In this document: positions 1 to 32,346 of the stretch, piece after piece
Numbering within the stretch: position 1 is the stretch's first letter
Layout of the letters: each line of letters opens with the position of its first letter
Sequence record: PX068456.1
DNA from: a phage
Direction: 5' to 3' (one strand)
DNA: 64,000 nt
The notes under the pieces: model-generated
What the model was told of the DNA's origin: nothing
The model's input: the letters and a program-made list of their open reading frames with translations, nothing else
The model's database searches: none
Position numbers and translations under genes: made by a program

Positions 1-1403
1 AACGCGATTTTTAGCGCCCCCCGATTTCTGCCGACCGTCCCCCTCAAATATCAATGAGAATTATTATCATTTGCATTATCATTCAATGACTTATAAGACT
101 TTTGATTATTTTCTAAGCAAGAAAGGCATTACTCACAACAAAACAGATAAATTCTAAGCAAATCAATGGCTTGGCAAGTCTAAACATCTATATACACCTT
201 GCCAAATGAAATGATCCTGCGTGAAATAGTGCCACCCGTGGAAGATAGCTGATAATGATTATCATTTGCATACTTTCTATACTATAAAACGCCCTAAAAA
301 TCAAAATAATTCTGATTTATTGCGCTTTTAAGAAAGTAGGCTCAACAAATAAGGAGGTACATTGCAACAAATAGGGATATTATTGGGGCAATAGTATGAA
401 AAACCATCTATTCATATATAAATAATTTTGCGCAATAGTGTTAATATTTTTCTTGTCAAGAAAGATTTCTTTGTGTTCACATAGCGCCCCCTGGAAGGTG
501 GCGCATTATGATCATCAGGGTCATTATTCACTATGTTTATTATTGGATAGCTTATATTATAGCCAATGTTCCAAACATTAGCTAATAATAACGCACCGCA
601 ACAATGTAAGGGAATACAATATACCATGTATATTGTTGCGCTTGCAGTTGTTGCAAGCTACATAAGCACAAATAATAACTATCGGTGATGGTTATTATGT
701 GGGGTGTGTAGTTGCGTTATTATTAGCCGCCTATGTGTCCGGCATAGGCTGCTAATGATACGCTTGCGAATTATATTTCTTGTTATAGTTATTGTATGAA
801 ATGATTACGGTATGAAATGATTACTTAGGTAATAGATAGGAAGGTAAAGGTTAGATCATAAATAGATAGGATATGAATTATTTAGTAATGTTACTAACGA
901 TTTAATAGTTACTTTGTGCAATAATTCAATAGATTATAGTTATAGTTTTAAAGGTTAGATAGATTATATTTAGCTTAGTAATGATTTATATTAGTTATTG
1001 TTGTTTAATATAAGGTTATCAATGAGATAGTAACAGTAAGTTATAAATAAAAGTAAGATAATTAGTTTTAATTTAGTTAGATAACTTATTATTTTATAGG
1101 TTAGATGGTCATAAGTTAAGAATGATTATCATTATTGCATTATGCAGTTTATTGCATAAATAATCAGCTATAAATAAGAATGATTATCATTTAAGAGGAA
1201 AGACAAGAAAAAGGCTGTTTTTGCCAGATAGTTGCATGGAGAAATTAAAAATAAGCGGTCTAAAACACGTTGTAAGCGCCTTATGATCTTCATGGTATGG
1301 TTGTTCATCTGCTCCTTGATTAGCTCGATACCGCGATCTATTCACTTTTTTCGGTGAACGTTTTTGATAGGTAAAAGCTATCATCTTTATTGAGGTAAAA
1401 AGA

Positions 1404-1424
1404 AAGGGCGCTTATTGCGCCCTT
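1404..1424 (-). terminator. intrinsic terminator hairpin AAGGGCGC-TTATT-GCGCCCTT
   Basis: inverted repeat followed by T-run on minus strand just downstream of 1439 stop; same hairpin family at 2245 and 5655. Confidence 0.5.
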
Positions 1425-1438
1425 GTATGGAATGTTAT

Positions 1439-1822
1439 TTACTGATAAGCTGGATCGTTTGTTATATCAATCCAATGAGTTAAATTAATTTTATTTTTTG
1501 CTTTCATTTTCTCGATCAACCGTTCGGCTAATGTTTCGGAACGAATATAAACATAATCGCTAAAATCTTGCCCCGTTTCTTCGTCGATCATTTCGCGATA
1601 TTCAATTTTCCCGATAAACGCGTGATTCAGCGCATAAGTTTTACCCGTGTACCAGTTATGTAAATGGATCTCGCATTTATAATCGTCGCTATAACCTTCG
1701 GTTGTTCTAACTTCAACCAAGTCACCTTTGAACACTGATAAGCACCACATAGGATCACGGTCTACAGCGCCGTTAAAATCTTTACCGTTTACAGTAGCCG
1801 CCAGGTTGATGATATTGCTCAT
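1439..1822 (-). CDS. hypothetical small early protein (127 aa)
   Basis: ORF track frame; start moved to internal ATG at 1822 with GAGGA RBS; promoter TTGACA-17-TATTAT upstream at 1863-1897. Confidence 0.5.
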   Translation of the reverse strand: MSNIINLAATVNGKDFNGAVDRDPMWCLSVFKGDLVEVRTTEGYSDDYKCEIHLHNWYTGKTYALNHAFIGKIEYREMIDEETGQDFSDYVYIRSETLAERLIEKMKAKNKINLTHWIDITNDPAYQ

Positions 1823-2244
1823 GGTGATTCCTCGTTTACCGTTTAAAATGATTTGCCCTACGTGATAAATAATAGTGTAAGCGTGATCCGGTGTCAATAG
1901 GTAGAATTGTAAAGATTTGATAGTTTATACCTTTGATGTTTTGTTGTTTAATAGGTATTAGCTATTAATATATAGCGGGATCTTCCGGTGATTATCTTCC
2001 CCTGTCCCCAGGTGCCGCCCGTTCCATAATAATAATCAAAAGCAGAATAAAAGGCAAGATAAAAAGCAAATTATTTCCTATGTGCTTTAAACGCTCTAGA
2101 TAGCTTTATAACGGCTTTTTCATCCTGGTAAGGTGATTAATCATCCCTACCTTGTTTAAGCGGTTATAATCGGTTTTAGGCTGTTTTACGCCACCTTTAC
2201 GCCTATTCTTTACGTGTTGTTTCCATCGTGAAAAAAGAATACAA

Positions 2245-2270
2245 AAAAGGGCGCTTAGTGCGCCCCTTTC
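2245..2270. terminator. bidirectional intrinsic terminator hairpin (GGGCGC stem)
   Basis: AAAAGGGCGCttagtGCGCCCCTTTC flanked by A/T runs, downstream of minus gene ending 2283. Confidence 0.5.
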
Positions 2271-2282
2271 TTTTACCGTGTA

Positions 2283-2672
2283 TTAATATTCATTATAATA
2301 CATCGCTAACTTTTCATCAAAAGCCGATTGACGATCAGCATACTCCCAGAAAATTTCCTGATCCTGTTGTTCGTCATCGTCCATCATATTAAATTGCGCA
2401 ACCTCCTGGTAAGTGATCGCCATATTATAACGATAGGTGATCTCTTCTGCGATGTTTTCCGGTAAAGATGATTCTACACTGTCTAACAGCATATTTAACA
2501 TCATTTCAGCCGCTTTTTCATCATTATCAAAACAGTAAGCAGACCATGCCGCATGATGTTTATTTTTCATCTTTGCAATCAAGCCATTGACTAAAAAAGG
2601 CGCTACGTTGTTAACGATACCCTGTAAAGATTGGAATTTTTCAACGTTAGAAACAGAAACCAGGTTGCGCAT
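2283..2672 (-). CDS. hypothetical small early protein (129 aa)
   Basis: ORF track frame; start at internal ATG 2672 downstream of promoter/hairpin cassette 2696-2756. Confidence 0.5.
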   Translation of the reverse strand: MRNLVSVSNVEKFQSLQGIVNNVAPFLVNGLIAKMKNKHHAAWSAYCFDNDEKAAEMMLNMLLDSVESSLPENIAEEITYRYNMAITYQEVAQFNMMDDDEQQDQEIFWEYADRQSAFDEKLAMYYNEY

Positions 2673-2695
2673 AGTATTTACCTTTTTGATTACCT

Positions 2696-2756
2696 GGCGG
2701 GAAACCATTTCCCGCCCTACGTGGTACACTTTACCAGATAACCGCATATTGTCAAA
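2696..2756 (-). promoter_or_regulatory. promoter + 5'UTR stem-loop cassette (TTGACA-16-TAAAGT, hairpin GGCGGGAAACCATTTCCCGCC)
   Basis: read on minus strand: -35 TTGACA, -10 TAAAGT, then perfect 9-bp-stem hairpin 2696-2716 before RBS. Confidence 0.55.
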
Positions 2757-2951
2757 CTATTTTTTACAAGGGATCAGTAAACTTCTCGCTACTGCTTCAC
2801 GAAAACCTTTACTTTTTATTAGATCTATTGTTGCAGGGTGACAAGTAAAAGCCTTTGACCATTTTTGATCACCTGGTTTACGGGCGAAAATGTATACTTC
2901 CCCGTCAATTTCATCCCAACGAGTATTGCTTGTTAGTTTTTTAAGCGCCAT
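2757..2951 (-). CDS. hypothetical small protein (64 aa)
   Basis: ORF track frame; internal ATG 2951 with AAGAGAAA RBS; cassette 2974-3030 upstream. Confidence 0.4.
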   Translation of the reverse strand: MALKKLTSNTRWDEIDGEVYIFARKPGDQKWSKAFTCHPATIDLIKSKGFREAVARSLLIPCKK

Positions 2952-2973
2952 GATGATTTCTCTTTTAGTTGTG

Positions 2974-3030
2974 AGCGGCACTATTGCCGCCCTACGCAAT
3001 ACATTCTACCCTATTTATAATTATTGTCAA
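2974..3030 (-). promoter_or_regulatory. promoter + stem-loop cassette (hairpin AGCGGCActattGCCGC variant)
   Basis: TTGACA at 3025-3030 (minus), hairpin 2974-2990. Confidence 0.5.
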
Positions 3031-3031
3031 A

Positions 3032-3301
3032 CTATTTTTTCAAGCTCGACCAGTCAAAACACGGCGGGATCTCGTTAAAACTTGTGCCCTGTAAAGCACA
3101 TAATTTTTTAGCAATAGCCGCCGTGACCTGGCGCTGTACGCGCGGATCTGCTACTGATTGGAGAAAGTAGGCGGCTTTATATGTGATCATGCTTTCGCCT
3201 GTTTCCTTGCTAACATGATGCACTATTTTAGCCTTATCATCTTTTACCAGGGTGTAACCGGATTCGATGGCCTTGATTGCAACGTCCAATGATATTTTCA
3301 T
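3032..3301 (-). CDS. hypothetical small protein (89 aa)
   Basis: ORF track; AAGAGATAAATC RBS; hairpin GGCGGGGAATACTCCCCCGCC at 3321-3341 in leader. Confidence 0.5.
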   Translation of the reverse strand: MKISLDVAIKAIESGYTLVKDDKAKIVHHVSKETGESMITYKAAYFLQSVADPRVQRQVTAAIAKKLCALQGTSFNEIPPCFDWSSLKK

Positions 3302-3320
3302 GATTTATCTCTTTATTGAT

Positions 3321-3341
3321 GGCGGGGAATACTCCCCCGCC
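3321..3341 (-). promoter_or_regulatory. 5'UTR stem-loop (GGCGGGGAATACTCCCCCGCC)
   Basis: perfect inverted repeat directly upstream of RBS of 3032..3301. Confidence 0.45.
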
Positions 3342-3348
3342 TTATTAA

Positions 3349-3519
3349 TTACTCTTCATCGTCGCCGTTATAGTATTCAATGCCGTTTTCATCGGTTACG
3401 GTAATATTAACGCCACCGATAGCAACACGATCACGGGCAAACGTCATGGCTTCATTTAAATCTTCAGACCAAAAAATATTGTGACCTTTGCGCGATACGT
3501 AAAACATAGTTGGGATCAT
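3349..3519 (-). CDS. hypothetical small protein (56 aa)
   Basis: ORF track frame; internal ATG 3519 after GAGAAGAGAAAC RBS; cassette upstream. Confidence 0.4.
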   Translation of the reverse strand: MIPTMFYVSRKGHNIFWSEDLNEAMTFARDRVAIGGVNITVTDENGIEYYNGDDEE

Positions 3520-3541
3520 GATTTGTTTCTCTTCTGCTGTG

Positions 3542-3599
3542 AGCGGCACTATTGCCGCCCTATGTGATAAACTTTACTACGTTGTTTGCCTACTGTCAA
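3542..3599 (-). promoter_or_regulatory. promoter + stem-loop cassette (TTGACA-17-TAAAGT, hairpin AGCGGCActattGCCGC)
   Basis: minus-strand reading of 3542-3599. Confidence 0.5.
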
Positions 3600-3600
3600 A

Positions 3601-3885
3601 TTATTTTTTAATGTTTTGCCCTACAAAATTGATCACTTCCTTAAGCTGTTTCTCAGTCATGATCGTGCCTGGTAATTCTTCTTTGATTTCTTGCGGTAAA
3701 TAGATATTACCGCGCCAGGTTAACAAGCAACCATTTTGATCTTTGCAGATAGAATAAGAGAAGATCCACTCATTATCATTCTCAAGCTCCCAAAAGCACA
3801 AAAAATCTTCTTTCCCTAAGTTTTCAACGGTTAAGCATAAGCCGCGACGTGCTGCATAGTTGGAAAGTGCTTTTGTGATCTTCAT
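3601..3885 (-). CDS. hypothetical small protein (94 aa)
   Basis: ORF track; RBS AGAAGAGATAAGAT; cassette 3906-3967 upstream. Confidence 0.5.
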   Translation of the reverse strand: MKITKALSNYAARRGLCLTVENLGKEDFLCFWELENDNEWIFSYSICKDQNGCLLTWRGNIYLPQEIKEELPGTIMTEKQLKEVINFVGQNIKK

Positions 3886-3905
3886 ATCTTATCTCTTCTG
3901 TTAAG

Positions 3906-3967
3906 GCGGGGAAACCATTTCCCCGCTCTATGAGATACAATATATTACTTATCAGGTGTGCTGTCAA
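3906..3967 (-). promoter_or_regulatory. promoter + stem-loop cassette (TTGACA-17-TATATT, hairpin GCGGGGAAACCATTTCCCCGC)
   Basis: minus-strand reading. Confidence 0.55.
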
Positions 3968-4291
3968 TCAATAATCTTTAATATTTTCTACATTTACAAA
4001 AGGGCGTTTATTTTCTAAGTTTTCGCCGTACCATTGCCCCATGTTGATTTCTGCGGTGCGCAACCAGGACATGCCGCGTTCTATCTTTTTGCTCGCAATG
4101 TCGATCCGGCTTTTGCATAGTGCTTTAGCTTGCAATGTAAAAACACTATCGCCCTGTAATGCTTCCAGGTCATCATGTGCAAGGCGATACTCTTTAAAGC
4201 CTGATTCTATCATTTCAATCGCATCAAGTAAACGCGCACGATGATAGAAAAAATCAGAGTTATCCAAATAAACACCGATCACAGATTTCAT
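3968..4291 (-). CDS. hypothetical protein (107 aa)
   Basis: ORF track frame; internal ATG 4291 with AAAGGG RBS; promoter TTGACA at 4357-4362. Confidence 0.45.
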   Translation of the reverse strand: MKSVIGVYLDNSDFFYHRARLLDAIEMIESGFKEYRLAHDDLEALQGDSVFTLQAKALCKSRIDIASKKIERGMSWLRTAEINMGQWYGENLENKRPFVNVENIKDY

Positions 4292-4391
4292 AATTTTACC
4301 CTTTTGTTTGCGGCCTTTGCCGTTTTCAAGATATATTTTAAAGCATAACAAAAAATTGTCAAGCCTTTAAAGCGTACAACTATAAAACCTA

Positions 4392-4511
4392 TTAAAACAC
4401 AATATATAATAACATGGCTATAGTAGCAATACAACATAAAGCCATGCTTGTTTTCCTTCCTTCCTCATATGCTGGATTTATTACGCTATACTGTACGGGA
4501 ATAATTTTCAT
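4392..4511 (-). CDS. tiny hydrophobic peptide (39 aa), putative membrane
   Basis: ATG at 4511 preceded by AAGGAAACAGC; promoter TTGACA-17-TATGCT at 4560-4584; below ORF-track size cutoff. Confidence 0.25.
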   Translation of the reverse strand: MKIIPVQYSVINPAYEEGRKTSMALCCIATIAMLLYIVF

Positions 4512-4620
4512 GCTGTTTCCTTAATGTTTTAAAACGTGGTTTACAATAGAAACAAGCATACAGAAGAAAAAAGATCCTGTCAATAAGATCCCGAAAAATA
4601 AATGTAAATAGGGCATGGTT

Positions 4621-4923
4621 TTACTCCTTAAAAAAATCATTGACAATTAAACTGATAACGCCCAGCACCAGATCACCAGGTAGCGCCGCGCTTTCGTTGT
4701 TGCTTGTTTGCACTTCCTCACTAGTATCAGCATTATAGATCGCATGGTAAGCAATAGTATAATAACCTTTTGTTATTTCTTTAAGATTAATGATTAGCAC
4801 GTTATTTGTTTCATCTTGAAATAATTTAGCGGTGATAGTATTGTTTTCTTTTACACTATCGACTTTTATTGATGGATCATTTACACCAGAAAAAAGAAAA
4901 AACGTTTTAGCTATGCCGTTCAT
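4621..4923 (-). CDS. hypothetical protein (100 aa)
   Basis: ORF track; AAGGAG RBS; promoter TTGACA-18-TAAGAT at 4940-4974. Confidence 0.5.
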   Translation of the reverse strand: MNGIAKTFFLFSGVNDPSIKVDSVKENNTITAKLFQDETNNVLIINLKEITKGYYTIAYHAIYNADTSEEVQTSNNESAALPGDLVLGVISLIVNDFFKE

Positions 4924-4970
4924 GTAGTTCTCCTTTGTTGTGTGTATCTTATAACGTGCTTTCTATATTG

Positions 4971-5372
4971 TCAATCTTTTATCTCGGTACATTTTGCTAG
5001 GGTATACGTTGCAAGTGCTGACACTAGTTTTTCATTGCTACGATCTGCGGCTGTACTGTGTACTTTTTGAATACTTTTTAACCACGGCGTAAAATTTTGA
5101 GTAGTGAGCACACTGGTAATAATTTCACATGGCACATCTTCATTTAAGCCATTAACAATAGATTTATCTATTTTTGCCGTTAATTGTGTAACAGCACCAT
5201 AAGCGATCATGTGTGAATCCTCCATGATTTCATCGGGGATCGCGTTATTAATGATCATGACGTTTTCCATTGCATCAACGGCGCTTAATTCTGCTACTGT
5301 GGAGGATATCGCCGCGCTAGATGTTCCAACCATGCCAAAAGAGATTAAACCAGCGATCAATAATTTTTTCAT
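4971..5372 (-). CDS. putative secreted/periplasmic protein (N-terminal signal peptide MKKLLIAGLISFGMVGTSSAA)
   Basis: ORF track frame; hydrophobic leader with AxA-like cleavage region; start chosen at 5372. Confidence 0.45.
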   Translation of the reverse strand: MKKLLIAGLISFGMVGTSSAAISSTVAELSAVDAMENVMIINNAIPDEIMEDSHMIAYGAVTQLTAKIDKSIVNGLNEDVPCEIITSVLTTQNFTPWLKSIQKVHSTAADRSNEKLVSALATYTLAKCTEIKD

Positions 5373-5380
5373 TTCTTGCC

Positions 5381-5563
5381 TCATATATGTTTTATTGAGA
5401 TTATATTGTCACTATATACAACGTTTTTCAACGTGTCAATAAAAATTTTATTCCCTTCAATCCCCAGGATCACGCCGCTAGTTATAAAGCCATATTGATC
5501 ACGATATCGGGCGCATAACCTTTGCCCCTGGGCTAGTGCCTTGCTTATTTCGTCTAATTTCAT
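5381..5563 (-). CDS. hypothetical small protein (60 aa)
   Basis: ORF track frame; internal ATG 5563 with AGGAG RBS. Confidence 0.35.
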   Translation of the reverse strand: MKLDEISKALAQGQRLCARYRDQYGFITSGVILGIEGNKIFIDTLKNVVYSDNIISIKHI

Positions 5564-5654
5564 TTTTAAAGCTCCTGTAAAGCTGTCTAACGTTGATTTA
5601 TAGGCTTGCCCTGGCGTTACCATTGCCTATGGGTAACAAGCCTCTATATAAGCT

Positions 5655-5680
5655 AAAAGGGCGCTTATTGCGCCCTTTTT
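5655..5680 (-). terminator. intrinsic terminator hairpin AAAAGGGCGCttattGCGCCCTTTTT
   Basis: third copy of GGGCGC hairpin; immediately downstream of small ORF stop at 5682. Confidence 0.5.
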
Positions 5681-5681
5681 G

Positions 5682-5819
5682 TTATCCGTTCCAGTGTCTT
5701 TTAGTGCTGCGATCTCTTTTTGTTTTGTTCCGCTTGTCGCCTTTCTTGGTGATCTCTTCGTTCCAATCTTTACGCGCTTTGTTGCGGTTGAATTTTTCGA
5801 TCTGCTGTGATGCGTTCAT
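5682..5819 (-). CDS. tiny basic protein (45 aa, Lys/Arg-rich)
   Basis: ATG 5819 with GAGAGGAAAAAC RBS, translationally coupled to upstream gene, followed by terminator. Confidence 0.35.
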   Translation of the reverse strand: MNASQQIEKFNRNKARKDWNEEITKKGDKRNKTKRDRSTKRHWNG

Positions 5820-5833
5820 GTTTTTCCTCTCGA

Positions 5834-6193
5834 TTACGCTACGTTATGATATTTTGCCAAAGTTACGATCATGCTTGCAATATATAACCAATAATTTTCC
5901 CGCTCACGGGTAACGGTTGTTTCTTTGCTTGTTTCTTTTATGTACTTCCATTCAATTAACAAGTGATCGATCTCGTTATAATCAAAAGCAATATTGACTT
6001 CTGACGGTAAACCTTGTAACCATGAGGCTATTGCCTTGATCACGTTATAATTGTAACGTTTTTGATTATCGGGATACCAGTATTCAGAATTAAAACGGCG
6101 CATCAGTTCGGTGATTTTTTCTTTTTCGGTTGTAGTACCATCAAAAGAAATAGCCGATAAAATGTAAGTTTTAATTGCTTTTGCTGATTTCAT
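5834..6193 (-). CDS. hypothetical protein (119 aa)
   Basis: ORF track; RBS AAGAGATAAGATT; cassette 6214-6272. Confidence 0.5.
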   Translation of the reverse strand: MKSAKAIKTYILSAISFDGTTTEKEKITELMRRFNSEYWYPDNQKRYNYNVIKAIASWLQGLPSEVNIAFDYNEIDHLLIEWKYIKETSKETTVTRERENYWLYIASMIVTLAKYHNVA

Positions 6194-6213
6194 AATCTTA
6201 TCTCTTTATTGAT

Positions 6214-6272
6214 GGCGGGAAACCATTTCCCGCCGTTGTTGTTACTTTACTTATAAATGATGCTACTGTCAA
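6214..6272 (-). promoter_or_regulatory. promoter + stem-loop cassette (TTGACA-17-TAAAGT, hairpin GGCGGGAAACCATTTCCCGCC)
   Basis: minus-strand reading. Confidence 0.55.
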
Positions 6273-6279
6273 GCGGATA

Positions 6280-6450
6280 TTATTTATTTTTTAACGTTAA
6301 TGTTCCCAGCTTATCAGCGTGACGCAGACCAGGAAAGATCCATTTTCCTGATTCATCTTTCACCGGGGCTTTAAGCGTAGCGCCCAGGTTGGCGGCATTA
6401 ACTTTACGTGCAACGTTGCGAGCGGCTTCACGGGTGGCGAAAGTGATCAT
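6280..6450 (-). CDS. hypothetical small protein (56 aa)
   Basis: hand-translated; ATG 6450 after GAGAAGAGGAAACATC RBS; cassette 6474-6534 upstream; below ORF-track cutoff. Confidence 0.4.
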   Translation of the reverse strand: MITFATREAARNVARKVNAANLGATLKAPVKDESGKWIFPGLRHADKLGTLTLKNK

Positions 6451-6473
6451 GATGTTTCCTCTTCTCTTTGTTA

Positions 6474-6534
6474 GGCGGTGGGCTATTCCACCGCCTTAAT
6501 GAATATAGTTTACTTTATTTTACCAGGTTTGCAA
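6474..6534 (-). promoter_or_regulatory. promoter + stem-loop cassette (TTGCAA-17-TATATT, hairpin GGCGGTGGGCTATTCCACCGCC)
   Basis: minus-strand reading. Confidence 0.45.
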
Positions 6535-6540
6535 GTAGTT

Positions 6541-6756
6541 TTATGAAATAATTGTCAAAGTAAAATCATAATCTTTTGACAGTTTATATTGCACCTTGTT
6601 ACCGTATATGTCACCTTTACGTAAAGATCCACGGATACCGATAACATCCTTCACGTCTTTTAAATTTTTCACGCCTGTAATGTCTTTGTTGAAATACTCG
6701 TCATCTGAAAATAAAACTTGACTTGCATTTTTTAACAGTGTGCGGATATTAACCAT
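6541..6756 (-). CDS. hypothetical small protein (71 aa)
   Basis: ORF track; cassette 6781-6837 upstream. Confidence 0.45.
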   Translation of the reverse strand: MVNIRTLLKNASQVLFSDDEYFNKDITGVKNLKDVKDVIGIRGSLRKGDIYGNKVQYKLSKDYDFTLTIIS

Positions 6757-6780
6757 CGTGATAATCTCTCTTCTGTTATG

Positions 6781-6837
6781 AGCGGCACTATTGCCGCCCT
6801 ACGTAATACAGTTTACTCTTTTTCTTTCCCGTGTCAA
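6781..6837 (-). promoter_or_regulatory. promoter + stem-loop cassette (hairpin AGCGGCActattGCCGC)
   Basis: TTGACA at 6832-6837 (minus), hairpin 6781-6797. Confidence 0.45.
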
Positions 6838-6846
6838 CAATCTTTT

Positions 6847-7074
6847 TCAGATTAATTCATCCAGGCATAACAGACGATCAACATTGAGATCGGTCAGGCT
6901 AATCGTTGGCACCTGGTAGGATTCGATGTACTCAACGCTCGACCATTGCCCAAAGTTAGCGACCGCCCAGCTATTCAAGGAGGAGTGAAGATCATCCCCT
7001 TTCTTCTCGGTGATAACTGCTACTACCTGGGAGATTCCAACCGTGCCGGATACGCGAACAATAACGATAGCCAT
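6847..7074 (-). CDS. hypothetical small protein (75 aa)
   Basis: ORF track; RBS AAAGAAAGG; cassette 7097-7156. Confidence 0.45.
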   Translation of the reverse strand: MAIVIVRVSGTVGISQVVAVITEKKGDDLHSSLNSWAVANFGQWSSVEYIESYQVPTISLTDLNVDRLLCLDELI

Positions 7075-7096
7075 AATGATAACCTTTCTTTCATTT

Positions 7097-7156
7097 GGCG
7101 GGAAACCATTTCCCGCCCTATGTGATAAACTATACCAGATTAAAAAACGTTGTCAA
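7097..7156 (-). promoter_or_regulatory. promoter + stem-loop cassette (TTGACA-16-TATAGT, hairpin GGCGGGAAACCATTTCCCGCC)
   Basis: minus-strand reading; best-matching cassette. Confidence 0.6.
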
Positions 7157-7165
7157 CTGCTTTTA

Positions 7166-7405
7166 TTACATTCCTACCATAGCGGCGCGGATACTGGTTT
7201 TACTGAATTTATAGCCATCTGGCGTAGTATTTTGGCCCATTTCGTTAAGTAGTGACATCATTTCACGCGCGGCGTTATCTTTATTGTTGTTCACGGCTAT
7301 AAATTCTTTTGCCATATTATAAAAACCTGGATCGTTATTAATCCAAAGGCTTACATTCCAATGAGTTTTATTTTTGTGACCGTTGTACATTTTAGATTTA
7401 GCCAT
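7166..7405 (-). CDS. hypothetical small protein (79 aa)
   Basis: ORF track; RBS AAAGAGATTAACATC; cassette 7430-7488. Confidence 0.45.
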   Translation of the reverse strand: MAKSKMYNGHKNKTHWNVSLWINNDPGFYNMAKEFIAVNNNKDNAAREMMSLLNEMGQNTTPDGYKFSKTSIRAAMVGM

Positions 7406-7429
7406 GATGTTAATCTCTTTTTCAGTGAG

Positions 7430-7488
7430 GCGGGAACTATTCCCGCTCTCGATATAAGTATTATATGCTTTTTATTCGTGCTGTCAAT
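7430..7488 (-). promoter_or_regulatory. promoter + stem-loop cassette (hairpin GCGGGAACTATTCCCGC)
   Basis: TTGACA at 7483-7488 (minus). Confidence 0.45.
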
Positions 7489-7493
7489 GCTTT

Positions 7494-7859
7494 TTATAAA
7501 TCTTTTTTACGTTTTACATCGCTTGCATGACTGTATACAGCGATCCCATTGTCACGGCAAAAACGGGAAAGGTAAGCATAATTTGAAAAGTCTTTACCTT
7601 CCAGGTTGATAACCTTGCTAAACTCTTCTAGGGCAACGGTATCAAAATGATCCCCATAGCCATATTGAAACGGAACGTTAACGACTTCAATCAGTTTACC
7701 GCCGATCTCAACGTCAACCATCAAAGAGAAATAAGTATTACCATAAGACTTTTGAAACCAGCGACGGGCGCTAATATGTACCGCTTCAATGCTGGATAGT
7801 TCAATTTTAGCAGTGTTAGCCAGGGTAGCATAAGCAGAAACATTGATATTTTTAGCCAT
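7494..7859 (-). CDS. hypothetical protein (121 aa)
   Basis: ORF track; RBS AAAGAGATTAAAGACT; promoter TTGACA-17-TAATAA at 7885-7935. Confidence 0.5.
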   Translation of the reverse strand: MAKNINVSAYATLANTAKIELSSIEAVHISARRWFQKSYGNTYFSLMVDVEIGGKLIEVVNVPFQYGYGDHFDTVALEEFSKVINLEGKDFSNYAYLSRFCRDNGIAVYSHASDVKRKKDL

Positions 7860-7954
7860 AGTCTTTAATCTCTTTTGATTAGTTAGGAGTATTCCCGATA
7901 AAAGTTATTATGCTTGTACTATCGTTCGTTGTCAATAGCACAAGACTAAAACTT

Positions 7955-8134
7955 TTAACGATAATCATCATATGCTTTATTGACCTGGCGAATATAACAT
8001 TCAAAAGCTAGATCAATAGATTTATATTCACGGATATATTCACCATAGGAAACCACATACATTTCTATAGCTTCCTCATATGCCAGGATGATAGAATCTA
8101 AACCTACGATCTCAGTCTTTGCAATAATAGCCAT
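7955..8134 (-). CDS. hypothetical small protein (59 aa)
   Basis: hand-translated; AAGGAATAAAAGC RBS; consensus promoter TTGACA-17-TATAAT at 8168-8198. Confidence 0.4.
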   Translation of the reverse strand: MAIIAKTEIVGLDSIILAYEEAIEMYVVSYGEYIREYKSIDLAFECYIRQVNKAYDDYR

Positions 8135-8167
8135 GCTTTTATTCCTTAGTAATGTTTCAATCTATAT

Positions 8168-8198
8168 AAGCATTATAGCTTACTGATTTCAGGTGTCA
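8168..8198 (-). promoter_or_regulatory. sigma70-consensus promoter (TTGACA-17-TATAAT)
   Basis: perfect -35 and -10 hexamers on minus strand. Confidence 0.6.
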
Positions 8199-8279
8199 AG
8201 TGATTTTTTATTTCACCTTTGAGGCGTTGCCCCGCTCTATGTGGTATATATTACGGGGCTTGTTTGCATATGTCAAGCC

Positions 8280-8834
8280 TTACACAATGCAATTTTCATA
8301 ATTTTTTAAGGCTTGTCTTTTTTCCTCTTCCGTCGGCATGTATGGCTGGATCTCTTCCTCTTCCAGGGTGGGCATGATTTCTTCCTCTTCCTCCTGGTCG
8401 CCCTGGTCTTCCTCTTGCGCTACTGCAACAAGTTTATTGATCTTCTCCTGGGCTTTAATCAATTTTGCATCTAGCACCATTTTAGCGGTGTTGTATACAG
8501 TCCAGGCCATGCGCTTTTCTTCGTATGCCTTATCTAGTGCGGCTAATTTAGCGGGATACTCTTCCAACACCTTAAAAGCCGGATCAATGCTGTACAAGGG
8601 ATTATTTTTAGCGTCATCGCTTGGATCTGCGGCGCTTGCAATGTCAGCGTTACCATTCGCCAGCCATCCAGGACGAACGGATCGCGTCCTGGTGTTGCCG
8701 TTGCTCTTTGCCGCTCGATTTCCTATCTGCTCCCCGCTATACCCTACCATGTGATCGATCATGTCATCTGGTATTATGCGCGGATCATTTGCGTCATGCT
8801 TTACCCAGGACTGGATCACATATTCACGCCCCAT
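8280..8834 (-). CDS. hypothetical protein with highly acidic Glu-rich C-terminal segment (184 aa)
   Basis: ORF track; RBS AGAAGAGG. Confidence 0.5.
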   Translation of the reverse strand: MGREYVIQSWVKHDANDPRIIPDDMIDHMVGYSGEQIGNRAAKSNGNTRTRSVRPGWLANGNADIASAADPSDDAKNNPLYSIDPAFKVLEEYPAKLAALDKAYEEKRMAWTVYNTAKMVLDAKLIKAQEKINKLVAVAQEEDQGDQEEEEEIMPTLEEEEIQPYMPTEEEKRQALKNYENCIV

Positions 8835-8835
8835 G

Positions 8836-9096
8836 TTAGTTCGCCTCTTCTGTTAGTAGTTTACATACCTTAAACATGCTTGCAGCGTCTTTTGACGGTA
8901 GCCAGCCTATCCGATACACTCCAGGATCTGGATTAGTTACATCAGTCAGTTGCGCGTTGCGATGATTAAAAATAGTGTAACCGCCGCCAGCACGGGGATA
9001 AACATTATCTTTAAACCTGATAGCGTATCTCGCCAGGTCGAACGTTGTAGCATGTTCAAAAGCGATCACATTATCAAAAACTTTTAGAAAAAACAA
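8836..9096 (-). CDS. hypothetical protein (86 aa), TTG start
   Basis: ORF track; GGAGGA RBS 5 nt before TTG. Confidence 0.4.
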   Translation of the reverse strand: MFFLKVFDNVIAFEHATTFDLARYAIRFKDNVYPRAGGGYTIFNHRNAQLTDVTNPDPGVYRIGWLPSKDAASMFKVCKLLTEEAN

Positions 9097-9098
9097 GA

Positions 9099-9245
9099 TT
9101 ATCCTCCCCAGCGTTTAAAGCCCGTTGCACGGTTATTTTTTAGCTCTCGTTTTAGTCTCTTGCAACGGTTTACAAGTGCAAACCGTGCCGGAGTCGTAAC
9201 AGTAGCGCCGTTTTTGGTGTGAATACTCATTACATATTGTTTCAT
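9099..9245 (-). CDS. tiny basic protein (48 aa)
   Basis: hand-translated; ATG 9245 after hairpin cassette 9265-9317; stop overlaps RBS of next gene. Confidence 0.3.
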   Translation of the reverse strand: MKQYVMSIHTKNGATVTTPARFALVNRCKRLKRELKNNRATGFKRWGG

Positions 9246-9264
9246 AAAGTTTTATCCTATGTAA

Positions 9265-9317
9265 GCGGGAATAGTTCCCGCTTTAAGATAGCTTATCAGG
9301 TTTTAGTGCAATGTCAA
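9265..9317 (-). promoter_or_regulatory. promoter + stem-loop cassette (TTGACA-17-TATCTT, hairpin GCGGGAATAGTTCCCGC)
   Basis: minus-strand reading. Confidence 0.45.
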
Positions 9318-9323
9318 CCGTTT

Positions 9324-9686
9324 TTATTCGTAAATTTTACCGCTTTCTACCCATACCATAACACGGCGCATGTTATCCCATGCATCTTGTCGCAGATTTA
9401 AGGCATGCAATTCTTCCGTGGTGCTCATACCTGGAACGGGCTTGCTATATGTTACAAAGAGATCGCCAGCATATTCATAAGCCAGGGTAAGATCACATTG
9501 AATCATCTTTTTAATCATAGCATCAAGCATCATATTAGCGGCATGTTGATCACGTTTCAGCGGTAACGTTGCGATCTGTGTGCGATAGCTTTCGATCCGT
9601 GCATCCACTGCATCACGCGAAAGGTTTTTCACGTCATCGCGGAAAGATACCAGGTTTAACATGATAGTATTGATTTGCTTGCTCAT
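9324..9686 (-). CDS. hypothetical protein (120 aa)
   Basis: ORF track; RBS AAAGAAAGGG; cassette 9709-9769. Confidence 0.5.
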   Translation of the reverse strand: MSKQINTIMLNLVSFRDDVKNLSRDAVDARIESYRTQIATLPLKRDQHAANMMLDAMIKKMIQCDLTLAYEYAGDLFVTYSKPVPGMSTTEELHALNLRQDAWDNMRRVMVWVESGKIYE

Positions 9687-9708
9687 TGTGTTACCCTTTC
9701 TTTGTTTT

Positions 9709-9769
9709 GGCGGGAAACCATTTCCCCGCCTTATGGAGTATATATTACCAAATTATTTTTCAGTGTCAA
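9709..9769 (-). promoter_or_regulatory. promoter + stem-loop cassette (hairpin GGCGGGAAACCATTTCCCCGCC)
   Basis: TTGACA at 9764-9769 (minus). Confidence 0.5.
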
Positions 9770-9772
9770 GAC

Positions 9773-10045
9773 TTAAAGCAAAAACGCTACATCTTGCGCT
9801 TTTAGTGTAGTGTCGATCATTTTCGGGCTTTTATAATCCACAAATCGCGCGGTTTTTTCAATAGCGAAACCGAGATAATCTTGTTTATTGAAATTACATT
9901 CTTTTTTAAACGTTTCCCGTGCCACTGTGATCGCTGCGTCCAGGGATAAACGTCCATCAATATTGATGTTAGCGAAAGATCCGCCACCGCGCATAGGTTT
10001 ACCAGTGATGCCAGCTACGATCATTGATGCGCTATATGATGCCAT
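9773..10045 (-). CDS. hypothetical protein (90 aa)
   Basis: ORF track; RBS AAGAGAGAAATAATC; cassette 10068-10128. Confidence 0.5.
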   Translation of the reverse strand: MASYSASMIVAGITGKPMRGGGSFANINIDGRLSLDAAITVARETFKKECNFNKQDYLGFAIEKTARFVDYKSPKMIDTTLKAQDVAFLL

Positions 10046-10067
10046 GATTATTTCTCTCTTCTGTTAT

Positions 10068-10128
10068 GAGCGGCACTATTGCCGCCCCTCGACAAGATGA
10101 ATACTACGCTACCAGGTGAGGAACGTCA
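10068..10128 (-). promoter_or_regulatory. promoter + stem-loop cassette (TTGACG, hairpin AGCGGCActattGCCGC)
   Basis: minus-strand reading; first cassette of the leftward array. Confidence 0.45.
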
Positions 10129-10240
10129 ACCATTTTTTTAATCTTTTTTTCATTTCTTTTTTGCTTGCTATCTATAAAGGAAACGGCTATTATCTTTCTA
10201 CCGCGCCAACCAGGGCGCACATCAAAGAAAGGGCGATACC

Positions 10241-10507
10241 ATGACAAATACTCCTTTACATCTCATGCACTCATTGGGCTGGCAAGGCGGCACGGTGCAC
10301 CAGGTAGCAAGCGCAACGGGCTTAAAGGTTGAAACCGTTCTCAACCTGGGCGATCATAAGGTGGAAGAAATAGAAAACTTTGATCCGTTCGCTGATGGTT
10401 ATCTATGGGCTTGCAGTGGCGGCGGGGAAAGCAAGATCCCGCCAGGGGCGCGGGGCGACATGTATTTTTGGTTAGGTGTCCTATCCTGGCAAGAAAACAA
10501 AAAATAA
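10241..10507 (+). CDS. hypothetical protein (88 aa) in GC-rich island
   Basis: ORF track; RBS AAAGAAAGGGCG; local GC visibly higher than flanks. Confidence 0.4.
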   Translation: MTNTPLHLMHSLGWQGGTVHQVASATGLKVETVLNLGDHKVEEIENFDPFADGYLWACSGGGESKIPPGARGDMYFWLGVLSWQENKK

Positions 10508-10508
10508 T

Positions 10509-10538
10509 CTTGACAAGCCCAGGGATCGGGCTTATACT
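10509..10538 (+). promoter_or_regulatory. sigma70-like promoter (TTGACA-18-TATACT) with no ORF downstream
   Basis: hexamers read directly; downstream ~150 nt GC-rich and lacks an ATG-initiated ORF. Confidence 0.4.
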
Positions 10539-10759
10539 GTTTTACATACAGAAGAGGAAACGCCACCCCCACGGCGTAAAGGCGGGGCTAACATACCAGG
10601 GGGCACTGGTTGGAAGGTTGATCGCCGGTAGCTCGTCCAAAATAAATTTGTAAAGAAATGTAAAGATAAAAATAATCGCTTGCTTTTGTTGTTGGTTATG
10701 CTATTCTTATTGTATGGCGAGGGGACACGGGAGCGCGAGACAAACACCGCCCCTGCGCG

Positions 10760-10885
10760 TTATTCTGTAAATGAGAAAAATTCTCATTTGCTAATGATTC
10801 TCATTCTCTTAGTGAGAATGCTTATCATTTACATAATTAAATGATAATGATTCTCATTTACAAATGAGAATGATTATCATACGCA
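10760..10885. repeat. cluster of Fur-box-like palindromes (AATGAT-T-ATCATT / ATGAGAAT..ATTCTCAT)
   Basis: at least four overlapping copies; related copies at 56-92, 250-275, 1118-1192. Confidence 0.45.
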
Positions 10886-10904
10886 TACCCATAAAAACAC
10901 GAAA

Positions 10905-11104
10905 TTGAACTTTTCATTTTTGATTTTTCTACGGAAAAAGGCAAAAAAACTTTAAATAAACTGGGGAATTTTTAAAAAATTGAAGTTTTCATTTTCAAAA
11001 TCTGGATAGAAATACATACAAAAACTTTAAATAATTTTGACCAAACTTGAACTTTTCATTTTCAAAATTTGTATCCAAAAATCTGTAAAAACTTTAAATA
11101 ATTT
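10905..11104. repeat. three ~60-65 bp direct repeats (TTGAACTTTTCATTTTCAAAAT ... AAAAACTTTAAATAA)
   Basis: units at about 10905-10960, 10980-11036, 11047-11104 in an AT-rich non-coding stretch. Confidence 0.55.
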
Positions 11105-11320
11105 TGTCCTTTTTATAAAAATGATTTTACTGTTCTGTTATAAATAGTAGTTAAGAGATAGTATGCCTTTTAAAAACCAGATATCATAATCCAACAAACA
11201 AATTAAATAATTTATTAACAGAGTACAAAATAATATTTACTCTGAATATATTATTCAGAGGGTGAATTTCCGTACATGAAACCCACACCCCTTTTTATAA
11301 AAATAAAAATTTTCAAAATA

Positions 11321-11872
11321 TCAGGAAATATCAGATTGTGTTTTTAGAAAAACAGCAAGGTCTGTATGCCATTTTCCTAAAAGATTTTGTCCTTTCCAAC
11401 AATCCTTATTTTCCACGTCCCGATCCCACATCCCCATTTTGATACCATAAATAGAATCATAGGGGCTTGCCTCTACGAACTCCTTATCTGCGTAAGCGAT
11501 AAGTTTATTTTTGAGATCTTCATTTTGTGTGTATTTAAGATACAAACCACGCTTGACAATCTTCTCCCGTAAAGAAGCCCAGGTATCTTCATCATAATCT
11601 TTAACTAATCTGCCTAGTCGCTTATAATATGCTTGTTCTTTTTCTCCTGTATATCTTAGATCTCCGGTTAAAATAGAAGATGCAATGTTGTAATCATAAA
11701 ACAAACATGCTTTTCTCCACATCATATATTGTTCCACACAAGTAAATTCAACAGAACTTGTAATAGAATTATTATACTTGGGAGCTAAAGGTTCAATAAA
11801 AGATGATAGATACCAGTTGCTAAATTCATCTTTTGCCGAGAAGAAGAACACATACTTATCAGTAATCCGCAT
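11321..11872 (-). CDS. NADAR (YbiA-like, DUF1768) domain protein
   Basis: motifs FFFS..EFSNW, EQYMMW, EASPYDSIYGIKMG and KGQNLLGK match YbiA/NADAR pattern by eye. Confidence 0.6.
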   Translation of the reverse strand: MRITDKYVFFFSAKDEFSNWYLSSFIEPLAPKYNNSITSSVEFTCVEQYMMWRKACLFYDYNIASSILTGDLRYTGEKEQAYYKRLGRLVKDYDEDTWASLREKIVKRGLYLKYTQNEDLKNKLIAYADKEFVEASPYDSIYGIKMGMWDRDVENKDCWKGQNLLGKWHTDLAVFLKTQSDIS

Positions 11873-12862
11873 TTACACCTCCTTATTGTATACTAACTTG
11901 CCACCATATTGTGTAATAATTTTTTGAAGATTTTCCAAATCAGAAACACTTACTGTTTCTGTATGACCGTCTTTCAACTCTCTTGCTGTTAAAATACCAG
12001 TTTTTAATTTTTTCTTTATAGCTCTTTCAGCAGCCTTACACTGTTTCACTGTGCTAAAATCATATAAACAAATACGTTCCATAAAAAACAGATTACGGCT
12101 ATTTTGAATGTTTAATCGCCTATCACTATCTTTAGCTATACCAAACTTAAGAGCAACTATAATATTATCATCCTTAACAATATTAATATATAACTGCTGC
12201 TGACTATGACCAGCACACATAGGACAACCTCGACCGAGGCTTAATAAATTATTAGCACTCCCTATCTGCTCACCATGCACAAGACAAAGATATTTAAACT
12301 TACCTATAGAAGAGGGTTTGGTAATCCAATCTACCCAGACATACCCTTTCCCTTCTACTTCCTTTTTTACCCTATAGGTGATCTGGTCTTCTGTATACCG
12401 ATAGTTCCCACAACGACACGGAATATACCCTCGTTTAAGGTTATCTCCTTCAGAGTAAAATTTACCATCACAAACACCTGCTTGAACATATTCATCATGA
12501 GAGCAAACAGGACATTCAACCATCCAGATAATATTCCTACATCCTTTACCCCGTGTTCCTGTGTTAGTGAAGATAGTGCCTTCCTTAAATTCCCCTGTAG
12601 AAAAGAAATCTGCAATATGTTGATCGTCGGACATTGTTTGTGACTTCCTTATATTCTTCCTCCTACATTGTGGACAACCGCTACCACATTTAAAACTGTT
12701 AATACTTGTAGTATCCCATTTATAACCACAATGGCACAACAAATCAAGTTTTGTGTGGACCCCTTTCCATTGTCCCGTCCATCCTAAGATTTGGATTTGC
12801 TTACTCTCTGCTATTGGTATACACTCTTCTTTATATTGTTCCCATGATTTTGGTGCTGCCAT
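11873..12862 (-). CDS. Cys-rich protein with three zinc-ribbon-like repeats and C-terminal T5orf172 (GIY-YIG-like) domain; putative nuclease/DNA-binding
   Basis: repeated C-x-C...CPxC modules; C-terminal KFGIAKDSDRRL resembles T5orf172 KIGxT..RR motif. Confidence 0.45.
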   Translation of the reverse strand: MAAPKSWEQYKEECIPIAESKQIQILGWTGQWKGVHTKLDLLCHCGYKWDTTSINSFKCGSGCPQCRRKNIRKSQTMSDDQHIADFFSTGEFKEGTIFTNTGTRGKGCRNIIWMVECPVCSHDEYVQAGVCDGKFYSEGDNLKRGYIPCRCGNYRYTEDQITYRVKKEVEGKGYVWVDWITKPSSIGKFKYLCLVHGEQIGSANNLLSLGRGCPMCAGHSQQQLYINIVKDDNIIVALKFGIAKDSDRRLNIQNSRNLFFMERICLYDFSTVKQCKAAERAIKKKLKTGILTARELKDGHTETVSVSDLENLQKIITQYGGKLVYNKEV

Positions 12863-32306: not shown

Positions 32307-32346
32307 TTGACTTTCTTTAAAAACAGTTTATAGTATACGACATAGA

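Follow-up and report, generated by a model that had tools for sequence, protein, structure and literature searches.

Repeated promoter-hairpin cassettes among the small genes of a phi92-like coliphage resemble, in a different architecture, the PeSLs of T4-type phages

The window analyzed here, a stretch of 64,000 nucleotides (nt) of phage sequence record PX068456.1, contains at 1400-10130 a cluster of small minus-strand genes, many of which are preceded by the same composite cassette: a sigma-70-type promoter, a GC-rich hairpin, and a purine-rich ribosome-binding site (RBS). An earlier note on this DNA likened these cassettes to the PeSLs of T4-type phages. A Megablast search with 1400-10130 matched 288 phage records, and the best matches, with 95-98% identity, belonged to Justusliebigvirus (Antha, ESCO8, muut, alia, and KKE7M, phi92-like myoviruses of the Stephanstirmvirinae). 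Aligned to phi92, the window proved to be the right-hand ~64 kb of a phi92-like genome, read as the reverse complement. Since window positions 1-342 correspond to the 343-bp direct terminal repeat of phi92, position 1 is the physical end of the genome. The small-gene cluster is the counterpart of phi92 gp225-gp248, and its transcription runs toward the genome terminus from a divergent control region at 10.1-11.3 kb of the window.

Twenty-five minus-strand genes encoding products of 31-184 amino acids (aa) were called within 1439-10045, matching the "about 25" of the earlier note. A PHROGs scan of 24 of them (the 31-aa g4616 was left out) gave family matches for 23, of which 22 are of unknown function and one is annotated only as a membrane protein and falls in the moron/host-takeover category. 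Because 23 of 24 match PHROGs families, the cluster genes are real conserved phage genes. The 89-aa gene 3301-3032 was the sole one of the 24 without a PHROG match. The single Pfam match in the cluster was Phage_30_8 (T4 gp30.8-like, function unknown) in the 127-aa gene 1822-1439, and a sequence search found no PDB relatives of the cluster proteins. The products include several small acidic proteins and two membrane-like peptides; these properties are compatible with accessory or takeover roles but are no evidence for them. The earlier note's proposal of host-takeover and anti-defense genes draws on nothing more than the small size of the genes and their lack of an assigned function. DNA polymerase I, the family-A polymerase that the earlier note had reported for this phage, is annotated in the relatives farther along the window.

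Matches to the strict promoter pattern TTGACA-N16/17-TAnnnT numbered 25 on both strands of the window, against 3.1 +/- 1.6 in shuffled sequences, and 17 of the 25 lie on the minus strand of 1869-9769. Three near-consensus promoters (10129, TTGACG; 7935, CATAAT; 6534, TTGCAA) bring the cluster total to 20, of which 19 directly precede a gene, the promoter at 8276 being an orphan. The earlier note had given every gene its own promoter, which was true for 19 of the 25 genes; the other six (ATG at 9096, 8834, 5819, 5563, 4616, and 3301) are coupled or promoterless. Its full promoter-hairpin-RBS cassette before nearly every gene shrank to complete units before 12 of 25, the rest having partial units or none. 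A scan for perfect GC-rich hairpins found 31 in the window, and the 8.7-kb cluster holds 13 of leader type and three canonical terminators. The two hairpin sequences that the earlier note quoted are present in three to four perfect copies each: GGCGGGAAACCATTTCCCGCC (plus-strand letters) at 2696-2716, 6214-6234, and 7097-7117, with near copies at 3906-3926 and 9709-9729, and AGCGGCACTATTGCCGC (also plus-strand letters) at about 2974-2990, 3542-3558, 6781-6797, and 10069-10085. The box TAGRGCGG occurs eight times versus 1.2 expected, and seven of the eight copies are on the minus strand of the cluster. Seven cluster promoters lack a strong hairpin, mostly in the 4.3-5.6-kb block, which has ordinary AAGGAG-type ribosome sites. 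Three units are degenerate, namely the orphan at 8200-8276, a remnant before ATG 7859, and a hairpin-less unit before ATG 1822. In the complete genome of muut, 9 of 12 promoter-plus-hairpin units are located inside the homologous 8-kb cluster.

The 5' half of the unit consists of an A-rich stretch, present upstream of the -35 boxes of the cluster promoters, TTGACA, a spacer of 16-17 nt, and TAnnnT. About 1-3 nt after the -10 box comes a conserved box, (T)AYCAC(A/G)TAG, followed by a hairpin of 6-9 bp with a near-invariant base GCGG...CCGC and a 3-6-nt loop. The 3' half comprises about 8 nt, a purine-rich AAGAGA or AAAGAAAGG, and a further 7-9 nt before the ATG. The full unit, from the -35 box to the ATG, measures about 75-87 bp, not the ~60 bp of the earlier note. 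Twelve of the 13 leader hairpins are 6-15 nt past the -10 box and 17-25 nt ahead of the ATG. The window and 14 related loci, 15 sources in all, gave 154 units of the same geometry: the hairpin begins 6-15 nt past the -10 box (mode 12), and its end is mostly 17-25 nt ahead of the ATG. Sigma-70 transcripts usually start 7 +/- 1 nt past the -10 box, with a pyrimidine at -1 and a purine at +1 preferred. The predicted transcription start is likely the variable purine of the box, and the hairpin would then lie 3-5 nt into the RNA. Judged by their letters, the Shine-Dalgarno (SD) sites of the cluster are weak (AAGAGA), and the phi92 record shows the same independently, with the weakest SD class (GGA/GAG/AGG) in 13 of 24 cluster genes versus ~10 of ~100 other genes. 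The other array of small genes, at the left end of the genome, consists of tightly coupled genes with strong AGGAG sites.

The features are listed below from the control region toward the genome terminus, followed by a single cassette outside the cluster; promoters are given as -35/-10 boxes.

10165-10243, plus strand: divergent cassette of the same layout, TTGCTA-N17-TATTAT, hairpin GCGCC-AACCAG-GGCGC at 10203-10218, AAAGAAAGGG RBS, ATG 10241 of an 88-aa gene
10043-10129, minus strand: full cassette of gene 10045-9773 (90 aa), -35 box TTGACG 10129-10124, -10 box TAGTAT 10106-10101, hairpin GCGGCA-ATAG-TGCCGC at 10085-10070, AGAAGAGAGA RBS, ATG 10045
9684-9769, minus strand: full cassette of gene 9686-9324 (120 aa), TTGACA/TAATAT, hairpin at 9729-9709 with one bulge, AAAGAAAGGG RBS
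9243-9317, minus strand: full cassette of gene 9245-9099 (48 aa), TTGACA/TAAGCT, hairpin AAGCGGGAA-CTA-TTCCCGCTT at 9283-9263
8200-8276, minus strand: orphan cassette with no gene, TTGACA/TAATAT, box CACATAGAGCGG, decayed hairpin at about 8240-8224, RBS-like AAAGGTGAAA, directly abutting the next promoter
8132-8199, minus strand: promoter-only unit of gene 8134-7955 (59 aa), perfect TTGACA-N16-TATAAT, no hairpin
7857-7935, minus strand: promoter and hairpin remnant of gene 7859-7494 (121 aa), TTGACA/CATAAT, remnant CGGGAATACTCC, AAAAGAGA RBS
7403-7487, minus strand: full cassette of gene 7405-7166 (79 aa), perfect TTGACA-N16-TATAAT, hairpin GCGGGAA-TAG-TTCCCGC at 7446-7430, AAAAGAGA RBS
7072-7156, minus strand: full cassette of gene 7074-6847 (75 aa), TTGACA/TATAGT, box CACATAG, hairpin GGCGGGAAA-TGG-TTTCCCGCC at 7117-7097
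6754-6837, minus strand: full cassette of gene 6756-6541 (71 aa), TTGACA/TAAACT, box TACGTAG, hairpin GCGGCA-ATAG-TGCCGC at 6797-6782, AGAAGAGAGA RBS
6448-6534, minus strand: full cassette of gene 6450-6280 (56 aa), TTGCAA/TAAACT, hairpin AGGCGGTGG-AATAGC-CCACCGCCT at 6496-6473
6191-6272, minus strand: full cassette of gene 6193-5834 (119 aa), TTGACA/TAAAGT, hairpin GGCGGGAAA-TGG-TTTCCCGCC at 6234-6214, AAAGAGA RBS
5655-5679, minus strand: intrinsic terminator after genes 6193 and 5819, AAAAGGGCGC-AATAA-GCGCCCTTTT
4289-5439, minus strand: middle block of four promoter-only units with -35 boxes at 5439, 4974, 4583, and 4362 and SD sites AAAGGAG and TAAGGAA
5384-4971, 4923-4621, 4511-4392, and 4291-3968, minus strand: genes of the middle block, no strong hairpin
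4616-4521, minus strand: 31-aa membrane-like open reading frame (ORF), coupled, in the middle block
3883-3967, minus strand: full cassette of gene 3885-3601 (94 aa), TTGACA/TATATT, box CTCATAG, hairpin GCGGGGAAA-TGG-TTTCCCCGC at 3926-3906, AGAAGAGA RBS
3517-3599, minus strand: full cassette of gene 3519-3349 (56 aa), TTGACA/TAAAGT, box CACATAG, hairpin GCGGCA-ATAG-TGCCGC at 3558-3543
3299-3341, minus strand: hairpin and RBS without a promoter, gene 3301-3032 (89 aa), hairpin GGCGGGG(GA)-GTA-(TT)CCCCGCC at 3341-3321, beginning 8 nt past the upstream stop codon
2949-3030, minus strand: full cassette of gene 2951-2757 (64 aa), TTGACA/TAGAAT, box TGCGTAG, hairpin GCGGCA-ATAG-TGCCGC at 2990-2975
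2670-2755, minus strand: full chimeric cassette of gene 2672-2283 (129 aa), TTGACA/TAAAGT, box CCACGTAG, hairpin GGCGGGAAA-TGG-TTTCCCGCC at 2716-2696
2249-2265, minus strand: intrinsic terminator, GGGCGC-ACTAA-GCGCCC, then TTTTTTGTAT
1820-1897, minus strand: promoter and box TATCACGTAGGGC of gene 1822-1439 (127 aa), hairpin lost, chimeric junction
1404-1424, minus strand: intrinsic terminator closing the cluster, canonical hairpin and T tract
32307-32394, plus strand: isolated cassette outside the cluster, TTGACT/TATAGT, box GACATAG, hairpin GCGGAGGA-TTG-TCCTCCGC at 32347-32365, AAAGAGGAG RBS, ATG at about 32386; the same singleton is present in muut at 98761

The 10 nt past the hairpin contain 0-2 T in the 13 leader hairpins and 4-8 T in the three terminators. 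Since they have no U tract and are positioned downstream of a promoter, the hairpins are, as far as the sequence indicates, transcript leaders and not terminators of the upstream genes, which bears out the earlier note. Like rho-independent terminators, they are perfect GC-rich hairpins located between genes; unlike these, they have no U tract and stand between a promoter and its gene, in a region with three separate canonical terminators. It is improbable that they terminate or attenuate upstream transcription and thereby limit the build-up of read-through along the promoter array: a hairpin downstream of its own -10 box would stop its own transcript after about 30 nt, and the sequence that follows is A-rich and carries the RBS. 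Such a role would agree with the T4-type PeSL stem-loop, which cut downstream lacZ expression as strongly as rrnB T1 (PMC2839356), and with the unit at 3321-3341, which directly follows a stop codon and has no promoter. Two hairpins also pass a lax terminator scan, though on the opposite strand. In the ASO2A record MZ726793, WebGeSTer labelled the hairpins "rho-independent terminator" although they are located between an annotated promoter and its coding sequence (CDS).

In the phAPEC8 record NC_020079, 20-mers comprising the box and the hairpin (e.g., GTAGGGCGGGAATAGTTCCC) are labelled "Putative promoter determined with PHIRE". The coincidence of these features with box and hairpin is all that speaks for a phage-specific promoter, and this explanation is highly improbable, given that a near-perfect sigma-70 promoter lies 6-15 nt upstream of the 20-mer and the ATG only ~20 nt away, that none of the relatives inspected has an annotated phage RNA polymerase, and that PHIRE returns any over-represented 20-mer. 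Reading the hairpin as part of the leader resolves the conflict between the "promoter" and "terminator" labels that GenBank holds for one element. Two further candidates were rejected. RNase III needs about two helical turns, and stems of 6-9 bp are too short to be its processing sites. N4-type hairpin promoters do not fit, as each hairpin has a full sigma-70 promoter ahead of it and the annotations list no virion RNA polymerase.

Folding of 12 leaders from the predicted start gave the hairpin as the minimum-free-energy structure (-14 to -19 kcal/mol, z -1.4 to -4.4). It is preceded by 0-6 unpaired 5' nt, if the predicted start 7 nt past the -10 box holds, and most of the RBS region is free of pairing (mean P 0.5-0.93). 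Across the 154 units, 38 distinct hairpin sequences occupy the leader position, and the fifth stem pair above the GCGG/CCGC base occurs as G-C, C-G, U-A, and A-U. Orthologues of the cassette before gene 9245 differ in the loop alone (CTA/TAG/TTG) with the stems kept, and the phAPEC8 orthologue of the cassette before gene 6450 has a compensated inner stem, GGA/TCC instead of TGG/CCA. On these comparisons of sequence, the stem varies across cassettes and the pairing is kept.

MAFFT alignments of the cassettes were not used for counting pairs, as stems of differing length were out of register; the counts come instead from a hand-centred seed and a covariance model of sixteen 3-nt-loop hairpins. 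This model recovers the 3-nt-loop class only and misses five GCGGCA-ATAG-TGCCGC copies. Its matches in the window were cluster units, the best being the cassette at 3883-3967 (33.9 bits) and another that at 9684-9769 (match 9704-9735, E 0.0014), the 32.3-kb singleton, a terminator-like hairpin at 39.6 kb, and four chance-level matches (E 0.2-0.9) at 1.4, 10.8, and 57.5 kb. Among 77 distinct model matches, 94.7% of cells pair versus 77% in shuffles and 44-75% in slid controls, and 130 cells are changed on both sides versus 50 (0/500 shuffles), figures that are supportive and not decisive. With no preselection for hairpins, 45% of 294 unique promoter-proximal leaders fold at <= -9 kcal/mol versus 9% of shuffles. 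Stability is higher on the sense strand in 94 cases and on the opposite strand in 31 (p 6e-8), and this excess mildly favors an RNA-level role for the hairpin.

An Rfam 15 scan of 1-12000 found nothing at the gathering threshold and chance-level matches only, to RT-17 (E 0.086) and BsrG (E 0.98). The RT-17 small RNA match, at 8134-8231 on the minus strand, overlaps the orphan cassette and the promoter at 8199; it scored 27.5 bits versus a gathering threshold of 40.4 and is probably due to chance. Some orthologous hairpins have loops that are exact reverse complements of each other, CTAT versus ATAG at related loci (about 7126 and about 8610, minus strand) and CTA versus TAG before the orthologues of window gene 9245. 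These inverted loops suggest a "flip" of the palindrome through template switching at the DNA level.

The box and hairpin together could be a protein recognition site, whether a palindromic DNA operator for shutting off early transcription, an RNA site for a translational repressor, or a boxB-like loading site for an antiterminator that takes polymerase through the cluster. The basal GCGG...CCGC and the preceding TAG are near-invariant in the Stephanstirmvirinae, PHIRE picked the element as a conserved 20-mer in the phAPEC8 record, and the element stands right at the predicted transcript start, where operators and nut-like sites work; with three terminators only in 8.7 kb, control of read-through is conceivable. 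We nevertheless regard this as unlikely. Arm length (5-9 bp), inner stem, and loop (3-8 nt) are all variable, orthologous loops may even be reverse-complemented, and unrelated stems occupy the same position in other lineages (GGGGAGAA..., GGGGGCAA...), which a structural role fits better. No boxA-like partner and no Rfam match were found, and recent common descent with gene conversion can explain the invariant stem base. The nut boxB of lambda type is likewise a short hairpin in a promoter-proximal early transcript, but each operon has just one, with a 5-bp stem, a defined GNRA-like pentaloop, and boxA as its partner, whereas the cassette hairpins have variable stems and loops and no boxA and occur one per gene.

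For the analysis of recombination, the window was compared with eight close relatives and phi92. None of the 26 breakpoint clusters is in a CDS; 19 are inside cassettes, and another six lie no more than 15 nt away. Only 18% of the cluster region is cassette sequence (binomial p 1e-9 for 19 of 26), but the enrichment was not significant once the comparison was limited to non-coding DNA. Since cassettes account for 69% of all non-coding DNA here, where a breakpoint lies does not by itself tell cassette-mediated events from non-disruptive survivors, and the recombination claim therefore rests on chimeric cassettes. At the junctions, adjoining BLAST segments share 7-59 nt. Of four junctions inspected, three were explicit two-parent chimeras, and at the fourth muut has a different promoter part and the same hairpin.

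In the cassette at 2670-2755, the promoter half is that of the upstream Antha cassette and the hairpin half that of the downstream one, with the crossover inside CCACGTAGG(G)CGGG. The 771-bp gene block of Antha is missing here, and seven relatives carry a block of 771-950 bp that is absent from the window at this place. In the unit at 1820-1897, likewise chimeric, the switch is at GTAGGGC; the hairpin was lost there, together with a gp247-like gene that eight relatives have. At the units 7403-7487 (breakpoints 7432-7472; chimeric relative to phage ZYD) and 6448-6837, single ORFs have been inserted, deleted, or replaced between cassettes. Gene 6756-6541, for example, has given way to another in KKE7M and is deleted from muut, the junctions being in its own and the next cassette. 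Gene 8134-7955 is missing from four of nine relatives, including muut, PD114, and PD06, and the junction is a 7-nt ATGGCTA at the start codons. Further breakpoints were found at 10079-10087 in eight relatives (cassette 10043-10129), at 9735 in two relatives (cassette 9684-9769), and at 2950/2982 (cassette 2949-3030). In phAPEC8, recombinant hairpins have arms of different origin.

At least 80% of the cluster is present as a contiguous stretch in 36 records versus 55-56 for two control regions of equal length, and its fragments occur in 288 records versus 127-131 for the same controls. By these sequence comparisons the small-gene region is hyperplastic and more mosaic than both controls. The earlier note had proposed comparing ORF presence and absence between conserved cassettes in related phages, and the comparison agrees with its idea: ORFs are gained, lost, and replaced between cassettes, and the crossovers fall within conserved cassette sequence. 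Given the chimeras, the cassettes very probably act as recombination homology for gene shuffling. An ORF-free stretch of ~330 nt (window 1900-2250) separates the terminator at 2249-2265 from the promoter at 1897; relatives have extra genes in it, one replacement junction is at 2052, and it has no Rfam match.

In another explanation the hairpin itself is functionless, a hitch-hiking part of a repeat that spreads and is homogenized by recombination or gene conversion and whose palindrome is kept by template-switch correction at the DNA level. Three to four identical perfect copies of each main type in one genome, chimeric and decayed copies, loop inversions typical of palindrome template switching, and several promoters that work, or at least persist, without a hairpin all agree with such a history. 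Nonetheless, we assign it a low probability, because at least four lineages with unrelated stems place the hairpin alike between the -10 box and the ATG, the sense strand is systematically more stable, and the stems are retained as the loops drift.

The layout of promoter, hairpin, purine-rich RBS, and ATG was found with other stems in phAPEC8-like phages, a Klebsiella member of the subfamily, an rV5-like phage (stems such as GGGGGCAA...TTGCCCCC), and the jumbo phage SHEFM2K (348 kb, PQ390715). SHEFM2K has at least ten units at 66-76 kb with stems of the type GGGGAGAA-ATGG-TTCTCCCC; they are a different family, with TTGCAA/TATAAT promoters, a TTACATCAAG-type box, G-run/C-run hairpins, and a TAAGGAA RBS. 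Five window ORFs have 67-77% identical copies in SHEFM2K, in another order, and these five are among the small ORFs that the SHEFM2K cassettes precede. The 59-aa gene (window 7953-8146) has 92.8% DNA identity to an ORF of an rV5-like phage (Vequintavirus) at 3986-4179. The homology stops at the ORF edges, and the two genomes are otherwise unalignable, so that the gene looks like a recent single-ORF transfer between subfamilies. The layout might be extended to a shared "docking standard" of unrelated large coliphages, in which the box and hairpin are an active recombination site producing ORF circles, a rather unlikely proposal at present. Small accessory ORFs would then move among phi92/phAPEC8-like, rV5-like, and 350-kb jumbo phages and be expressed at once, and the site might act through hairpin/cruciform extrusion, template switching, or a dedicated phage enzyme.

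Combining these observations, we rather favor self-contained expression modules in which a stabilizing or insulating hairpin is joined to repeat-based shuffling. Host sigma-70 RNA polymerase would read each module, starting at the purine of the box; we infer early expression of the cluster from the sigma-70 consensus alone. The hairpin, 0-6 nt from the 5' end of a short mRNA, would hinder the 5'-end-dependent decay by RppH and RNase E, and it would hold the weak A-rich ribosome site open alike in transcripts from its own promoter and in read-through transcripts. A function as mRNA stabilizer or insulator is a tentative suggestion, with chances somewhat short of even. In E. coli, 5' secondary structure stabilizes mRNA since RppH and RNase E need single-stranded 5' ends (review PMC3997798; Emory et al. 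1992, as cited in that review). Because the same 15-60 nt precede many genes, recombination between modules swaps whole ORFs: the shared promoter, box, and hairpin would serve as homology, and ORFs could be deleted, inserted, or replaced with expression unbroken. This module shuffling would make the region hyperplastic and permit ORF exchange with coliphage lineages of the same layout.

Several points weigh against this combined reading. No transcript maps for this phage group were found in the literature searched, and the start, timing, and half-life effect are predicted. At the likeliest start, the model leaves 3-5 unpaired 5' nt, which is borderline for a block of RppH and RNase E. The hairpin appears not to be essential for expression, given the seven cluster promoters without a strong one, and the near-invariant basal GCGG/CCGC with the TAG box would also fit a sequence-specific binding site. 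The covariation alignment was fitted to the structure and mixes both strands. In the 294 leaders, G-U pairs, which would distinguish RNA-level from DNA-level pairing, show no sense-strand bias (70 versus 82). Finally, breakpoint position as read from the alignments gives no proof of cassette-promoted recombination beyond selection against gene disruption.

Among known systems, the closest in plasticity are the PeSLs (Arbiol et al. 2010, PMC2839356; Comeau et al. 2014, PMC4122927). Both are repeated composite intergenic units of 50-100 bp, with a sigma-70-type early promoter that has an A/T-rich upstream part, a GC stem-loop, an SD, and a start codon, and both gather in a hyperplastic region whose small ORFs have no assigned function. 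In both, indel and replacement junctions are located in the units, even inside the stem-loop, and degraded "half" units are present. In PeSLs, however, the stem-loop precedes the promoter, stands between its boxes, or overlaps it, and it is a terminator/attenuator (PMC2839356; PMC4122927), whereas here it is past the -10 box in 154 of 154 units, in the 5' untranslated region, with no U tract. The lineage also differs, Stephanstirmvirinae and not T4-like, and the weak SD AAGAGA is conserved. PeSLs are further characterized by encapsidated mini-circles that arise when neighboring units recombine, and such circles were looked for in RB49/phi1. The resemblance claimed in the earlier note is therefore kept for repeated promoter/stem-loop/RBS cassettes in a hyperplastic region and given up for the place of the stem-loop. 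The units are PeSL-like for genome plasticity, yet they are not filed as PeSLs because architecture and lineage differ; they are best described as a different architecture of mobile regulatory cassette, real and non-random. In the literature searched, PeSLs are described for T4-likes only, and the element is undescribed in phi92/phAPEC8/rV5-like phages, although the original phi92 and phAPEC8 genome papers may mention the motif.

With the 5'-stabilizer hairpins of the E. coli mRNAs of ompA and papA the cassettes share a stable hairpin a few nt from the 5' end (here a predicted one) and an open leader and RBS. They differ in being a sequence-related repeat family before a dozen genes, and their stability effect is presumed. 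The leader of phage T7 gene 10 has a 5' stem-loop of the same stabilizer kind. Stabilizer hairpins protect from RppH/RNase E 5'-end-dependent decay (PMC3997798).

Other repeats surround the cluster. The consensus of the E. coli Fur box is GATAATGATAATCATTATC, and Fur-box-like repeats, e.g., TGATAATGATTATCATT, occur at window 55-80, 250-275, 1114-1136, and 1172-1191 and in a cluster at 10786-10890. Matches with <= 3 mismatches numbered five versus 0.05 expected. The repeats flank the gene cluster, some in the non-coding stretch at the terminus and others on the far side in the divergent control region, which hints at iron- or Fur-responsive control or at Fur titration. Three ~70-nt direct repeats at 10902-11122, all containing TTGAACTTTTCATTTT and AAAAACTTTAAATAA, lie where ORFs are scarce, in the divergent region that separates the cluster from the endonuclease-side genes; they may be an origin or a regulatory array. 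The divergent region 10500-11101 retains 70% identity down to a Klebsiella relative. Toward the terminus, window 343-1400 is ~1 kb of AT-rich DNA without convincing genes, in which some records annotate strings of 30-40-aa ORFs. Four records named "Campylobacter phage" with the host C. jejuni (MG065645, MG065689, MG065639, and MG065656) are ~96% identical to this coliphage region; their host labels are probably wrong, or the samples were contaminated.

If this reading is true, cassette shuffling extends beyond T4-likes to at least one more subfamily of therapeutic coliphages, the phi92/phAPEC8-like phages, and probably to rV5-like and jumbo phages, and the same evolutionary outcome is reached with the stem-loop elsewhere and probably with a different job. 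The cassettes would offer engineering a compact natural module of promoter, leader, and RBS, together with natural insertion points in these phages. The cluster marks a turnover site of the accessory gene pool and is where host-range, takeover, and anti-defense genes may be sought.

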